DNA from: Candidatus Nealsonbacteria bacterium
GTDB taxonomy: Bacteria > Patescibacteriota > Minisyncoccia > Minisyncoccales > DAOVPY01
Direction of reading: 5' to 3'
Length of the DNA: 64,000 nt
NCBI GenBank assembly: GCA_030628945.1
Contig: DAOVPY010000003.1
Location: forward strand, 1,297 to 65,296
Of this stretch, positions 12,413 to 47,316 are shown piece by piece. Below the pieces are notes generated by a model that searched no databases, was not told the origin of the DNA, and saw only the letters and a program-made list of their open reading frames with translations. A program made the translations under genes and the position numbers. The first letter of the stretch is position 1, and each line of letters opens with the position of its first letter.

Positions 12413-12454
12413 GTTCGCTCGGAAGTCCGAACGAGCAAGCTCATTCGGACTTCT
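12413..12454 (+). promoter_or_regulatory. Mutually exclusive hairpins upstream of a surface-protein gene
   Basis: The pairings gttcg/cgaac (12413-17 / 12428-32) and gaagtccgaa/ttcggacttc (12422-31 / 12445-54) share bases. Confidence 0.35.
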
Positions 12455-12479: not shown

Positions 12480-13535
12480 ATGGCAAAGCAAATTTCATAC
12501 AAAATTATCCCTCTGTGTTTAGGCGTTCTGACAGTTTCCTTGCTGCTCGGTTATATTGTCCTGGCCTGGACAGAGCCAACAATGAGTCCTCCCGGCGGCA
12601 ATATGGCTCCGCCTCTCCGTTTGATAAACGGAGCAGTATCTTTAACCGACGCCACTCATTCCGAAGGAAATCTTACAAATGTTAACGCAATAATAGGTTA
12701 CAATGATCTATTTCTCAAAGGAAACTCAGCTGAAACATCTCCGGTTTATCTCGCTGGCAATGAAATCAAGATGTATACCAGCGGAACACAGAGAATGAAG
12801 ATTGACTCCAGCGGCAATATTACTATATCCGGCGATTTGAATGTGAGTAAAGGAATCATCTTGGGCGGAGTAAAAAAAACAACATGGCCGAGCGGCGGGG
12901 GCAGTATTTTTGATTCAATAGTTTTTAATCCCCAAACAACTCCGCCGAGTAGTCCTGTAAGGGGCCAGGTATATTTTGATGCAAATTCAAACCTAATGAA
13001 GTACTACGATGGAGCCGCCTGGCAGTTTATGGACCGCGGATACCTGAGCGGCTTGATAGGTTACTCTGGAGTAACGCACACGCGCCAGCACTGCGTGAAT
13101 GCTGGCGGCATGATAACTGGAATCAGCGGCGATGGGACAAATACTGAGGTCTGCAAATTTTCTAGAAGTTCTTGCCCGAGCGGGTGGGCACGGGCTGGGA
13201 ATTGGAACACGCACGCCAGTTCAATTAACCCTGATTGTAATACAGGGGGAGATTATTGTGGAAATAATAAAACGACTTGCTGTACAGTAAATGCGTGTAA
13301 TTGGAGCAATAATGATCCGAAATGCACCTATTATTCGTACAGCAAGAGTTCCGGTGGTTGGGGTGACCGCGTTGGTTATTGCTCTTTCGGAAGAACCGGC
13401 GGCTGCGATCCTAACCGGTGGTGCGGATGCTACTACAGGCCACCTCGGGAGATTTACTGTGACACCTTTGACACCCACACGAAGTCGTATTCTGCCTTTG
13501 GTAGTACGGCTATAACAGAAATCGGCTGTAAATAA
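12480..13535 (+). CDS. Membrane-anchored surface protein, AWTEP N-terminal module plus Cys-rich GC-rich C-terminal head
   Basis: TM helix PLCLGVLTVSLLLGYIVLAWTEP. Shares two blocks with the 25973 paralogue. The C-terminal 170 aa contain many Cys, including a CPSGW motif. Confidence 0.75.
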   Translation: MAKQISYKIIPLCLGVLTVSLLLGYIVLAWTEPTMSPPGGNMAPPLRLINGAVSLTDATHSEGNLTNVNAIIGYNDLFLKGNSAETSPVYLAGNEIKMYTSGTQRMKIDSSGNITISGDLNVSKGIILGGVKKTTWPSGGGSIFDSIVFNPQTTPPSSPVRGQVYFDANSNLMKYYDGAAWQFMDRGYLSGLIGYSGVTHTRQHCVNAGGMITGISGDGTNTEVCKFSRSSCPSGWARAGNWNTHASSINPDCNTGGDYCGNNKTTCCTVNACNWSNNDPKCTYYSYSKSSGGWGDRVGYCSFGRTGGCDPNRWCGCYYRPPREIYCDTFDTHTKSYSAFGSTAITEIGCK

Positions 13536-25855: not shown

Positions 25856-25959
25856 TCTTTTTTATAGCATATTGAGCGAATCCCGCAATGTGCGGGGTTC
25901 TCGTTCCGCTTCCAGCGGAACTCAAACTTATCCACAAAGATTTTTATTTTGAAATGCGG

Positions 25960-25965
25960 TATAAT
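25960..25965 (+). promoter_or_regulatory. -10 box TATAAT, 7 nt upstream of the start codon
   Basis: ggTATAATgaagtatATGgcaaag. Confidence 0.45.
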
Positions 25966-25972
25966 GAAGTAT

Positions 25973-27166
25973 ATGGCAAAGCAAACTTTATACAAAACCG
26001 CGCCTTTGTGTTTAGGCGTTCTGGCAGTTTCGTTCCTGCTCGGTTATATTGTCCTTGCCTGGACAGAGCCGTCTGTCGCTCCTCCGGGCGGCAATGTAGA
26101 CGCGCCAATAAACGTGGGAACGGATTATCAGGTTAAGGACGGTGATTTAGGCCTAAGAACCTTTTACATAGACGATATTAAGATTGGAGGAACCATCCCT
26201 GACTTATATTCCGCGCACGGAAATCTGATTGTAAAGAACAGCAGCAACAAGGTTACCCTGGAAATAGACGGCAGCGCAGGCAATATCACAATGTCCGGCG
26301 ATTTAGAGGTGAGCAAAGGAATTATCCTGGGAGGAGAGAAAAGAACTACCTGGCCAGGCGGAGAATCCGACATTTTAGATATTCTCTATTTTGGTTCTGG
26401 AAAAGACGGCGATATTGTGATAACTTCAAATACAACACTTTCAAGAGATATGGAATATAGAAATTTAACAATAAATTCCGGCGCCCTTAATCCAAATGGC
26501 TGGAGAATTTTCGTGTCAAATACTTTAACAATAGCATCCGGAGGAAAGATTAGCAGGAATGGAACAAGCAATGGCTCTGCTCTTGCGGCTCACACTATTG
26601 GTGGTTCAGGGGCAGGGGCGCCTGGAGTTAGAAGTCCTTATCCTCGTCATCCTCTTGTTAAAGGGGCGAAAGGCGAAGATTCTGAAGCAGGAGGAAATGG
26701 AGGAGCCGGTGGTAGTTGCGGCGCAGGTGGCGGAGCAGGAGGAAAAGGTGGCAATTGGGTTATTAATGGAATTCCAGGAATAGCTCCTATTATTATTCCG
26801 AGAAGCGGTGGAGCTGGCGGGGGCAGTGGAGATGCAGACGGTTATGGTGGATGTGCAGCAAGTAGTCGCGTAGGCGCAAGCGGCGGCGGAGTACTTGTTA
26901 TTTTCGCAAAAAATATAGTAATGAATGGAGACATAACTGCGAAAGGTGGCAATGGAGTAAATGCATACGGATGCGGTTGCGGTGGGCCCACACGTGGCGG
27001 TTCTGGCGGCGGGGGTGGCGGCCATATATTTTTAGCTTATAAAACAAAAACAGGTTCTGGAATAATAGACGTCTCTGGGGGAAACGGCGGCAACGGTTGT
27101 GTAGGTTGCGGTAATGGACAAAATGGCAGTCCAGGTTATAGCAGAGGATATCAGGTTACATATTAA
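25973..27166 (+). CDS. Membrane-anchored surface protein, AWTEP N-terminal module plus Gly-rich C-terminal domain
   Basis: Start chosen by homology to the 12480 paralogue (MAKQ...). TM PLCLGVLAVSFLLGYIVLAWTEP. The C-terminal half is made of GGxGG/GGNG runs interspersed with short hydrophobic strands. Confidence 0.75.
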   Translation: MAKQTLYKTAPLCLGVLAVSFLLGYIVLAWTEPSVAPPGGNVDAPINVGTDYQVKDGDLGLRTFYIDDIKIGGTIPDLYSAHGNLIVKNSSNKVTLEIDGSAGNITMSGDLEVSKGIILGGEKRTTWPGGESDILDILYFGSGKDGDIVITSNTTLSRDMEYRNLTINSGALNPNGWRIFVSNTLTIASGGKISRNGTSNGSALAAHTIGGSGAGAPGVRSPYPRHPLVKGAKGEDSEAGGNGGAGGSCGAGGGAGGKGGNWVINGIPGIAPIIIPRSGGAGGGSGDADGYGGCAASSRVGASGGGVLVIFAKNIVMNGDITAKGGNGVNAYGCGCGGPTRGGSGGGGGGHIFLAYKTKTGSGIIDVSGGNGGNGCVGCGNGQNGSPGYSRGYQVTY

Positions 27167-27323
27167 TTAAAACGAAAAATTCGGGATGTTTCTGAATTTT
27201 CTCAATTCTATTTTGGAATTTGTACAAATTAGTGGATGTTGAGGTCTGACCTTAACAGCCCCCTAAGTCAACACTTTTCCACAGGGATTTTTGTTAGGAA
27301 ATGTGCTATTGTATAAAAATACA

Positions 27324-28706
27324 ATGTCAAAGAAAAACTTTCTAAAAATTTGTTCAGTTATTCTGGGAGGAATTTTAGTGGTTTTAGTTTTTTCTCAAAT
27401 TCCGGTTTATGATTTGTTTATCGCGGAAAAAACAATTGCCGGCGATGATGATAATATTTCTGGCTGGGCTTGGTCAGAAAATATCGGCTGGGTGAGTTTT
27501 AATTGCAATAATCCGGAATTATCAGCGCCCCGATGCAATAAAGATTACGGCGTAAATATTAATGACGCTACTGGAAAATTTTCCGGCTATGCCTGGTCCA
27601 GGGGGACTGACGCGGATGAAGGCGGAGTGGGTTGGATTGATTTTGCTCCAACTGGCCCTTATCCCGGGGCGCCGAATTATTCCGTTTGCGTAAATCTTCC
27701 CAATATCAGCAACGAAGTTTGCGAAGCGGATTTATTAAAGGGCCAGATTGGCGGTTGGGCAAGAGTGGTGTCTTCCGGAGAATGGATTAAATTAAGAGGA
27801 ACTAATTACGGGGTTTACGTAGATAAGACAACCGGTGAATTTCACGGCTGGGCATATGGCGGAGAATCCATGGGCTGGCTCAGTTTTAACTGCGTTGAAG
27901 GCGGAGATTGCGGAGATTCAGATTACAAAGTGAAAACTGCTTTGTCTTTTAATTCTGCCCCGGATAAACCGGGAATTGACCTTGCATATCCGGAAGGAGA
28001 AAGTTTGAGTCATTGTTCTTTTCAGGGAAAATCCATTCCCAGTTTTTATTGGACTTATTCCGACCCGGAAACCAATCCACAAATCGGTTATGAGATTTGG
28101 ATAGATGATGATCCCGGTTTTCTTGACCCGAAATTTAATAATTTGGTGGAAGCAAGCGCGTCCACGGCTTATACCTTGGATCTCAGTCAGGATGATGAGT
28201 GTCCCGGTGATTGCTGGCTTTCTAATCTTGCCTGGAACACTACTTATTACTGGAAAGTAAAAGTAACAGATGATATAGATGACCCTTCCCATTGGTCAGA
28301 ATGGTCAGATGTAAATTCGTTCGCCACGCCAAAGCATGCCTGGCCCTGGCCCGATTTTGCCCCCTCGCCCGTTCATCCGGGAGTTAACGGGATTGTCCAT
28401 TTTATTCAGAACGGCGCGTTTCCCCATGAAGATTATAAATCTTTGTGTTATGCAGGGGGCGAGCATCTTTGCGAAGATGATTCAAATGTCGTATATGAAT
28501 GGGATATTGGAAACGGCCAGATTCCCGATATTTGCGATATAGATATTAATTGCAGGGGAAACGCCACCACCACTTATACCGCTATGGGAACATATACAAT
28601 AAAATTAACAATAACCGATACGACTCTTCCTGGAACTTGCAGCCGTTCAAAACCAATAAATATTAGCCTTCCTTTCCCAATATGGGAAGAAATCCGTCCG
28701 CAATAA
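27324..28706 (+). CDS. Membrane-anchored surface protein with GWxW...GW(I/L)(S/D)F repeats and a C-terminal PKD-like domain
   Basis: TM ICSVILGGILVVLVF. Repeats ISGWAWSENIGWVSFNC, FSGYAWS..GVGWIDFAP, FHGWAYGGESMGWLSFNC. C-terminal YEWDIGNG...YTIKLTITD. Confidence 0.7.
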   Translation: MSKKNFLKICSVILGGILVVLVFSQIPVYDLFIAEKTIAGDDDNISGWAWSENIGWVSFNCNNPELSAPRCNKDYGVNINDATGKFSGYAWSRGTDADEGGVGWIDFAPTGPYPGAPNYSVCVNLPNISNEVCEADLLKGQIGGWARVVSSGEWIKLRGTNYGVYVDKTTGEFHGWAYGGESMGWLSFNCVEGGDCGDSDYKVKTALSFNSAPDKPGIDLAYPEGESLSHCSFQGKSIPSFYWTYSDPETNPQIGYEIWIDDDPGFLDPKFNNLVEASASTAYTLDLSQDDECPGDCWLSNLAWNTTYYWKVKVTDDIDDPSHWSEWSDVNSFATPKHAWPWPDFAPSPVHPGVNGIVHFIQNGAFPHEDYKSLCYAGGEHLCEDDSNVVYEWDIGNGQIPDICDIDINCRGNATTTYTAMGTYTIKLTITDTTLPGTCSRSKPINISLPFPIWEEIRPQ

Positions 28707-28848: not shown

Positions 28849-28931
28849 GGGTAGGTACCAAAGTGGCTAAACGGGTGTGGCTGTAAACCACATGGCTTCG
28901 GCCTTCGGGGGTTCGAATCCCTCCCTGCCCA
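28849..28931 (+). tRNA. tRNA-Tyr (GTA), long variable arm, no encoded CCA
   Basis: Manual fold. Acceptor gggtagg/cctgccc, anticodon stem tgtgg/ccaca with loop ctGTAaa, variable arm ggcttcggcc, T-loop ggttcgaat. Confidence 0.85.
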
Positions 28932-29079: not shown

Positions 29080-29153
29080 GCCTGGATAGCTCAGATGGTT
29101 AGAGCACTTCATTGGTAATGAAGAGGTCAGCGGTTCAATTCCGCTTCCAGGCT
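29080..29153 (+). tRNA. tRNA-Thr (GGT)
   Basis: Manual fold. Acceptor gcctgga/tccaggc, D-arm gctc...gagc, anticodon stem cttca/tgaag with loop ttGGTaa, T-arm agcgg-ttcaatt-ccgct. Confidence 0.9.
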
Positions 29154-30140: not shown

Positions 30141-30211
30141 GGGGGCGTGGTGAAATGGCATCATAGAAATCTCCAAAATTTTTGTTCCGGGTTCGAATCC
30201 TGGCGCCCCTG
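30141..30211 (+). tRNA. tRNA-Trp (CCA)
   Basis: Manual fold. Acceptor gggggcg/cgcccct, anticodon stem gaaat/atttt with loop ctCCAaa, T-arm ccggg-ttcgaat-cctgg. Confidence 0.8.
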
Positions 30212-47244: not shown

Positions 47245-47316
47245 AGCCAGAGAGAGGAATCGAACCCCCAACCTATGGTTTACAAAACCATTGCTCTGCC
47301 ATTGAGCTACCCTGGC
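47245..47316 (-). tRNA. tRNA-Thr (TGT)
   Basis: Manual fold of the reverse complement. Acceptor gccaggg/ctctggc (one G-U pair), D-arm agctcaatggcagagc, anticodon stem atggt/accat with loop ttTGTaa, T-loop ttcgatt. Confidence 0.8.

Follow-up and report, generated by a model that had tools for sequence, protein, structure and literature searches.

Paralogous genes with a conserved WTEP N-terminus and exchangeable heads in a Candidatus Nealsonbacteria contig: probable members of a modular surface fibre family

Two genes in a contig of Candidatus Nealsonbacteria (GenBank assembly GCA_030628945.1, contig DAOVPY010000003.1) begin almost identically and end in unrelated domains. What does the common beginning do, and how did the ends come to differ? 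We analyzed a stretch of 64,000 nucleotides (nt) of this contig, positions 1,297 to 65,296 of the forward strand, here called the window. The contig, scaffold_47 with 106.6 kb, comes from sample SAMN18200505, which belongs to the South China Sea cold-seep metagenomes, a data set with 44 Patescibacteria genomes. We consider it probable that the two genes, gene A (12480-13535) and gene B (25973-27166), are paralogs within a family of modular, secreted cell-surface fibres. Such a fibre would consist of five parts: a Sec-type signal peptide (of the twin-arginine (Tat) type in one relative), a mature N-terminus of about 30 residues, a tail-fibre-like stalk, a junction of the form …ILGG.K.TTWP, and a variable C-terminal head. 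The signal would carry the protein over the membrane and then be removed by signal peptidase I. The conserved WTEP N-terminus would be the cell-proximal end, by which the fibre is docked or assembled on a conserved partner in the envelope, and the distal head would bind a ligand on another cell. New specificities would arise by recombination at the conserved joints, with heads that are also used by phages and giant viruses among those taken up. The parts of the two genes are listed below; P and L numbers in the list and the text denote the proteins and loci compared.

12480..13535, + strand: gene A, 351 amino acids (aa): signal peptide, WTEP motif, tail-fibre-like stalk, TTWP junction, Cys-rich head
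12480..12566, + strand: predicted Sec signal peptide of gene A, aa 1-29 (MAKQISYKIIPLCLGVLTVSLLLGYIVLA), with V-L-A end (AlphaFold helix; family statistics at -3/-1)
12567..12602, + strand: conserved mature N-terminal motif of gene A, WTEPTMSPPGGN (family alignment)
12603..12812, + strand: stalk of gene A (…NAIIGYNDLFLKGNSAETSPVYLAGNEIKMYTSGTQRMKIDSS); relatives match PHROG tail-fibre families
12813..12890, + strand: junction block of gene A, GNITISGDLNVSKGIILGGVKKTTWP, the second block in common with gene B, P0009 and P0004
12891..13532, + strand: head of gene A, a tail-fibre-type motif followed by a Cys-rich domain with CPSGW
25928..25965, + strand: conserved element 5' of gene B (TTATCCACAAAGATTTTTATTTTGAAATGCGGTATAAT), with TATAAT inside
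25973..27166, + strand: gene B, 397 aa: signal peptide, full WTEP…L motif, short stalk, TTWP junction, Gly-rich virus-type fibre head
25973..26059, + strand: predicted Sec signal peptide of gene B, aa 1-29, with V-L-A end
26060..26149, + strand: conserved mature N-terminal motif of gene B, WTEPSVAPPGGNVDAPINVGTDYQVKDGDL, the full family consensus
26279..26356, + strand: junction block of gene B, GNITMSGDLEVSKGIILGGEKRTTWP
26357..27163, + strand: head of gene B, a Gly-rich domain of about 250 aa (FGSGKDGDIVITSNTTLSRDMEYRNLTINSG…); AlphaFold model and fold match to phage or giant-virus fibre or collagen-like proteins

The leader family and its predicted cleavage site

Residues 1-41 of the two proteins are identical at 32 of 41 positions and the first 123 nt of the genes are 83.7% identical. 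A second common block, GNIT(I/M)SGDL(N/E)VSKGIILGG.K.TTWP, is found at aa 112-137 of A and aa 103-128 of B with 22 of 26 residues identical. BLASTP aligned aa 1-150 only (49% identity, E = 4e-35), in agreement with the first-pass annotation of this DNA, which had described near-identical starts, a second common block and complete divergence beyond them. Within the window the LAWTEP…PPGGN motif is present in two copies, in genes A and B only. The public NCBI/ENA call for gene A (P0001) begins at M42, so that the signal peptide and the WTEP motif are lost. For gene B the open reading frame (ORF) lister opens at TTG 25949; we used ATG 25973 because it is aligned with the start of gene A, has the conserved ATATGGCAAAGCAA and agrees with the public gene call P0010.

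A leader profile of 60 residues was searched against 1.84 billion (1.84e9) protein representatives. It found 3,638 protein clusters (50% identity) at E <= 1e-3 and 532 at E <= 1e-10, and the motif therefore extends far beyond the two genes in which it was first noticed. Among the top 150 of the 3,638 matches, which were inspected, the alignment begins at residue 1 in nearly all and protein lengths range from 62 to 1,103 aa. A homolog search with gene A gave ten proteins with the same start (M.KQ…LAWTEP..PPGGNV.AP) and entirely different C-termini; most of the ten share an IGYNDLFLKGN…RMKIDSSGN stalk. The DNA pattern AWTEPxxxPPxGNV, into which the hydrophobic region does not enter, matched more than 120 contigs of metagenomes from many environments and had 0 matches in 2.9 million viral contigs (IMG/VR). 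Two further searches with the 60-aa alignment gave little: a GTDB genome scan with over-specific patterns found 2 loci only, and a word-indexed protein search only 4 short proteins. GTDB locus L003 (Tepidisphaeraceae) was rejected, since its 'VVLAWTE' is a coincidental match inside an unrelated protein of high GC. Tandem arrays of two to three family genes are found at L021, L055, L067 and L079.

The motif was counted over 151 members, with W used as the anchor for locating it. W, P+3 and N+11 are invariant. T+1 is found in 135 members and E+2 in 140, P+7 and P+8 in 150, V+12 in 144, P+15 in 146, Q+23 in 133, K+25 in 132 and G+27 in 131. The family consensus of about 30 residues is WTEP-x3-PP-x-G-N-V-x-A-P-(I/L)-N-(V/T)-G-x3-Q-x-K-x-G-x-L, with L at +29; gene A leaves it (NV.AP(I/L)N) past PPGGN. 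Genes A and B have no match in Pfam or NCBIfam, and no model in Pfam (132 members searched) or NCBIfam covers the leader. PDB sequence searches with gene A, the gene B head profile and the leader profile gave nothing meaningful, and in the literature we found no description of the leader motif or of these surface fibres of the candidate phyla radiation (CPR; Patescibacteria) as a family. The family is very large and, as far as these searches go, undescribed. It appears to be specific to Patescibacteria and probably consists of modular secreted surface fibres.

Upstream of W the 151 members have A at -1 in 143 cases and V, I, A or L at -3 in 148, while -2 is unconstrained (L, F, V, A, I, W, R, S). 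In the 111 distinct metagenome members among the matches listed, -3 is V in 60, I in 20, A in 16, L in 6 and T in 4, Arg or Lys stands at -2 in 21, and the median length of the signal peptide is 29 aa. Some members have one or two additional residues between Ala and Trp. The hydrophobic part itself varies as it does in ordinary Sec signal peptides: 45 of the 111 are like genes A and B, 16 belong to a second type (…YW.GV…G.S.Q..[RK]A), and the other 50 include short classic forms such as …FVLPARA|W and …NQASA|W. One member, L075 (start ~3387, - strand), has a twin-arginine signal (NRRKFLKF…NFAKA|WTEP), which implies that the passenger may be exportable in the folded state too. The hallmarks of a Sec/signal peptidase I substrate (basic n-region, h-region, -3/-1 rule) are found in genes A and B, with K3/K8 in the n-region, and in the family. 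'AWTEP' is most likely a predicted signal peptidase I site, (V/I/A)-x-A, followed by a conserved mature N-terminus, WTEP; we prefer this reading because of the -3/-1 pattern with its free -2 position and because the hydrophobic part is replaceable. Cleavage would fall at A|W.

The N-terminal helix could instead be an uncleaved signal-anchor (type II topology), a permanent tether with AWTEP…PPGGN as the juxtamembrane, wall-spanning linker. Genes A and B have 20-21 uncharged residues in a row here, against a family median of 20, and AlphaFold models the helix at aa 9-30 confidently. Within the gene A/B subfamily K-22, L-18, G-15, V-14 and L-13 are conserved. A fibre also needs an anchor, and there is no C-terminal one in A or B. 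However, the helix sequence varies over the family and is replaced by short classic signals and by the one Tat-type signal. A strict -3/-1 pattern with a free -2, occupied by Arg or Lys in about a fifth of those metagenome members (21/111), is not what one would expect where a stable membrane helix ends, and genes for S26 peptidases adjoin some loci. We regard the signal-anchor as unlikely, though it is an alternative to be taken seriously.

Two suggestions of the first-pass annotation should be read in this light. AWTEP had been proposed as a dedicated processing signal; its Ala is the -1 residue of the predicted signal peptidase I site, and a dedicated enzyme is hinted at only by the S26 genes elsewhere. 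The hydrophobic helix and AWTEP had been taken as one anchoring or export module. The helix is most likely a cleavable signal peptide and not a permanent anchor; its sequence is specific to the subfamily and interchangeable.

Three other readings of the N- and C-termini were rejected. The prepilin motif G[FM][TS]L[IL]E is absent from A, B and their relatives and no pilin model was among the Pfam/NCBIfam matches; true pilins with GFTLIELLVV are separate, neighboring genes, and a type IV pilin (class III signal) was dismissed. A lipoprotein was rejected as well: Cys13 (IPLC) of A and B has Leu at -1, and Cys is found there in only 28 of 150 members. C-terminal sorting (LPXTG/sortase or PEP-CTERM/exosortase) was rejected in the absence of a hydrophobic tail in A or B and of an NCBIfam match.

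Stalks, heads and their exchange

Great diversity is seen behind the leader, with fibre and adhesin modules among the domains. A Pfam census of passengers over the 132 members found Peptidase_S74 (the tail-fibre/endosialidase chaperone) in five members, Shufflon_N (PilV) in two, a T4 Gp34_trimer domain (7.7e-37), and YadA_head repeats (6e-26) in one relative only. Further passengers are Collagen, Endostatin/DUF1554, Lcl_C, Dockerin, fn3, Reelin-B and FGE-sulfatase. Many members have GNVGIGTT.P..KL.V.G repeats, and family stalks match PHROG tail-fibre families, most clearly phrog_9942 (5e-10, in relatives). No member matched the YadA anchor (C-terminal beta-barrel translocator). On these domain types the family members are probably fibrous surface proteins with binding heads, likely trimeric. 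As putative adhesins they are good candidates for attachment to other cells. We also observed a 222-aa member, P0097, with a C-terminal match to the collagen-IV C4 (NC1) domain of metazoans (E = 1.2e-29), an unusual domain to find in a bacterium.

The stalk of gene A is common to P0002-P0008 and P0011, and also to P0012/13, where it occurs without the leader; it has a recombination breakpoint after RMKIDSSGN. The head starts with a G.VYFD…YYDG..W motif at 12957-13028 of the tail-fibre type (weak match to phrog_8309, 5.8e-7). Behind it lies the Cys-rich domain that the first-pass annotation had pointed out, with 15 Cys within aa 205-350, CPSGW at 232-236 and the C-terminus …AITEIGCK. The Cys-rich part has only weak relatives, all inside the leader family (P0063, 1.7e-7, in a set of ~400 sequences); CP[ST]G[WY] is seen 36 times in that set. 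No match to the gene A head was found by tblastn in 50,697 deposited phage genomes. A single-sequence AlphaFold model of gene A reached a mean predicted local distance difference test (pLDDT) of 37.6, and its usable part is the N-terminal helix, aa 9-30. The overlapping ORFs at 12993-13515 that had been ascribed to GC-rich DNA are present in the ORF list. The head DNA is richer in GC than the window (48.8% vs 38.8%), but this is not peculiar to the head, as genes A and B are at 42-52% throughout. The value of 48.8% fits the Gly/Cys/Ser/Pro-rich composition of the head. The idea of a foreign composition of the Cys-rich head is not supported; this head is only modestly above the rest of gene A.

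The head of gene B contains 27.7% Gly, which bears out the Gly-rich end noted earlier, and ends in …SRGYQVTY. AlphaFold with a 95-sequence alignment modeled it at pLDDT >90. This model matched predicted structures of fibre/collagen-like proteins from uncultured Caudovirales, Pandoravirus and Orpheovirus (E 1e-17 to 1e-18) and had no significant match in the PDB. There is a weak PHROG match (phrog_13336, 1e-6). The Pfam model Gly_rich_2 (PF21722) does not match gene B at E <= 1 and matches the family member P0036 at 8.7e-21. More than 100 homologs of the head were found, most of them without the leader and behind unrelated phage-like N-termini; the named relatives of gene B are from Ca. Paceibacterota, Falkowbacteria and Nealsonbacteria. 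More than 120 viral contigs carry the FGDGSDGDV signature of the head, and tblastn confirmed 58 of them. The N-terminal 130 aa of gene B had no match in any of 120 viral loci with this signature. For the head of gene B, tblastn against the same 50,697 deposited phage genomes gave two marginal Halorubrum virus matches (E ~1e-3), one annotated as a putative adhesin. We also noticed variant leaders in front of gene-B-type heads (P0160, P0161, P0163, P0164, P0167; P0162, P0165, P0166), of the forms …AYQVFAAYLTSPENLKYPNPGHYPGEIGPGTFN and …FIVYS(W/F)(K/T)EP…P(S)SY..P(L/I)NT…Q.K.G.L; their sequences suggest sister versions of the same design of signal plus N-terminal motif.

The heads have been swapped by recombination. 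P0002 and P0003 are 79-85% identical to gene A over the first ~112 residues, to RMKIDSSGN, and then continue into other heads. P0009, from a sister sample of the same study as the window, is a mosaic at the nucleotide level: it is 97% gene-A-like at nt 1-45, 85-100% gene-B-like at nt 120-340, and 91-93% gene-A-like at nt 330-390 (the TTWP junction), after which a different Cys-rich head follows. There are therefore at least two recombination joints, one after …(D/S)SGN and one after TTWP, and the retained unit would run from just 5' of the start codon to one of the two. An element upstream of gene B (TT.TCCACA…ATTTTTATTTTGAAA.G.GGTATAAT) is common to gene B, P0009, P0004 and P0003 across samples, while gene A lacks it. 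A scan for the sigma-70 consensus did not call it a promoter despite its TATAAT, and since the scan gave nothing canonical we name it only a conserved element. Scans for canonical sigma-70 promoters and terminators 5' of both genes likewise gave nothing canonical. A near-perfect inverted repeat (GAAGTCCGAA…TTCGGACTTC) at 12421-12453, between the GAPDH gene and gene A, may be a terminator, though without the T-run demanded by the scan.

Could the common N-terminus be the product of a recent local duplication or gene conversion, with no function of its own? Synonymous codons are kept: A and B agree at 23 residues of the 29-residue signal and have the same codon for 20 of these, as against 12 of 22 in the second common block, and there are mosaic tracts between paralogs. 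Gene conversion accounts for this local nucleotide identity, but not for the conservation over the family, where the motif is invariant in thousands of clusters that differ in signal, stalk and head and stem from many environments. The new heads of P0002 and P0003 and the mosaic P0009 rule against a simple recent duplication without modular exchange. We find the explanation hardly credible, and the common N-terminal stalk with exchangeable distal heads that had been proposed for the two genes is supported.

The fold of the gene B head is found on viral contigs and the leader on none, which is evidence of head exchange with viruses. The genes themselves might be remnants of a prophage or a phage-derived tail-fibre cassette. 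Their stalk and head modules are tail-fibre-like, and the fold and signature of the gene B head are common on viral contigs. Phage tail fibres (T4 gp34/gp37, or the endosialidase type with Peptidase_S74) also have a conserved N-terminal attachment end, a repetitive stalk and a recombining C-terminal head. In contrast, the family is chromosomal, has Sec signals and an N-terminal motif that is absent from viral contigs (0 of 2.9 million, as against over 120 contigs from metagenomes; the first 130 aa of gene B had no match in the 120 viral loci), and lacks a virion context. Gene A lies between the genes for GAPDH and acetyl-CoA synthetase, and gene B between a carbamate kinase gene and the gene of a secreted protein with IGWISFN repeats. 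With such housekeeping neighbors and with signal peptides, a prophage remnant is very improbable.

Neighboring genes, candidate partners and precedents

The gene directly 3' of gene B is the following.

27291..28706, + strand: secreted protein of 471 aa with GWAWSENIGWVSFN repeats and Ig (Rha78A_N-like) and PKD domains

In 17 other loci a family gene has a homolog of this IGWISFN protein close by (tblastn with the gene of the window, 1e-68). Neighboring genes were clustered over 120 metagenome loci among the matches listed, in which 88 family genes were evaluable upstream and 53 downstream. A single-pass membrane protein of 160-195 aa is encoded directly 5' of 14 of the 88 (L021:11396-11869, L056:5968-6447, L013:5665-6180 and 11 more loci), and another small membrane protein directly 5' of 7. 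The 160-195-aa protein family has no Pfam match; we noted in it an acidic GEVGEI linker and a C-terminal domain …GSNF.D…R.LT…FE.GQ…GLEGL.YL…ENIRGK.EF. The prepilin peptidase PilD is encoded directly 5' of 7 of the 88, on the same strand and within 600 bp, and genes for pilins, PilC and PilT/PilB come before it; the median identity among PilD proteins of these loci is 54%. A same-strand family gene closes type IV pilus operons (PilT/PilB, PilC, one or two pilins, PilD) at L037, L026, L040/L110, L047, L062, L067, L070, L090 and L103. A Peptidase_S26 gene lies directly 3' of 4 of the 53 family genes with enough flank (Pfam E 2e-19 to 5e-14). In S26 genes beside family genes (L045:1056-1619, L036:730-1299, L028:2076-2642, L122:1894-2421, L050:254-814) G.SL.P replaces the usual SM. 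These associations suggest that the neighbors are envelope partners. The window itself contains no pilus gene, no S26 gene and no gene for these small membrane proteins. The window also has four tRNA genes, at 28849-28931, 29080-29153 and 30141-30211 (+ strand) and at 47245-47316 (- strand); three of them are clustered just 3' of the gene B/IGWVSFN pair.

Some of these neighbors offer a narrower reading of the mature N-terminus, as an export or docking signal for a type IV pilus, by way of a tip minor pilin, or for the small membrane protein upstream. [quoted passage not shown] This export signal is the closest mechanistic precedent for a conserved N-terminus after cleavage: a Sec signal is removed and a flexible mature N-terminal recognition segment follows (predicted for the family), and some family genes end pilus operons. 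The two are not similar in sequence, and one exoprotein per pilus compares with thousands of family members, several per genome. The pilus linkage is seen in a minority of loci and not in the window. CPR cells are, to our knowledge, thought to lack an outer membrane and secretin. The pilus is favored by PilD 5' of the 7 genes, in loci with PilD proteins as divergent as ~54% identity, and by the PilV shufflon domain in two members, and docking on a membrane protein by the small proteins directly 5' of 14 and 7 genes. However, the window has no pilus or S26 gene and no gene of the 160-195-aa membrane protein cluster, most family genes are not beside pilus genes, and the synteny is possibly inherited rather than functional. 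We judge the narrower reading decidedly unlikely.

A wider version has the WTEP segment as an unrecognized, phylum-wide secondary sorting signal that, once the protein is exported by Sec and its signal cleaved off, would hand thousands of different fibre and adhesin passengers to one conserved envelope machine. In our estimate this is quite unlikely, and we put at the same low level the candidates for that machine, most plausibly a type IV pilus tip, or a pair made up of the small docking protein in the membrane and the IGWISFN protein.

Several other systems join a constant N-terminus to exchanged passengers. Modular type IV pilins such as PilB and PilC of Streptococcus sanguinis consist of a constant N-terminal module with grafted adhesive modules (PMC8179133). 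These pilins and shufflon PilV resemble the family in the constant N-terminus with swapped C-termini, and Shufflon_N itself occurs among the passengers. The family differs in that it lacks a class III signal, G|F-T-L-I-E and any match to a pilin model. YSIRK-G/S and KxYKxGKxW are Gram-positive export signals conserved across surface proteins with different passengers. In those the motif is within the signal peptide, whereas here the signal is variable, the conserved part comes after the predicted cleavage site and NCBIfam has no match. In BclA-type fibres of the Bacillus exosporium a short conserved N-terminal targeting segment attaches a trimeric fibre with a stalk and a globular head to a basal layer. 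Some family members likewise have collagen repeats and collagen-IV C4 heads, but there is no sequence relation to BclA and the export route is different. Trimeric autotransporter adhesins have a C-terminal beta-barrel anchor, whose model matched no family member; one relative has YadA_head.

We retain secreted modular fibres with a removed signal as the probable reading of genes A and B, with several points weighing against it. The uncharged stretch of the two signals is long enough for a permanent membrane anchor. Removal of the signal calls for a separate partner to hold the fibre on the cell, for which there are candidates only. The docking role of the WTEP segment is drawn by analogy, and the segment was modeled poorly (pLDDT ~50-60). 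The links to neighboring genes are correlative and come from related loci, which are phylogenetically non-independent, and not from around gene A. Weak matches to the leader profile may be driven partly by the hydrophobic segment. Trimerization of the two proteins is suggested only by domain types in some relatives.

CPR bacteria are believed to live in attachment to other microbes. Outside a few Saccharibacteria, little is known of the molecules with which they choose and bind their hosts. The signal peptide with WTEP…PPxGNV is a sequence handle that picks out thousands of candidate surface fibres. The family yields a catalog of binding heads and of candidate partners, namely the small membrane proteins, IGWISFN proteins, type IV pilus operons and S26 peptidases. 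The M42 start in the public call for gene A means that such proteins can be missed in secretome predictions. If the conserved N-terminus were a secondary sorting signal, the machine that it addresses and the repertoire of heads would decide to which host cell a CPR bacterium attaches. The family offers a concrete and testable way into the question of how CPR bacteria recognize their hosts.

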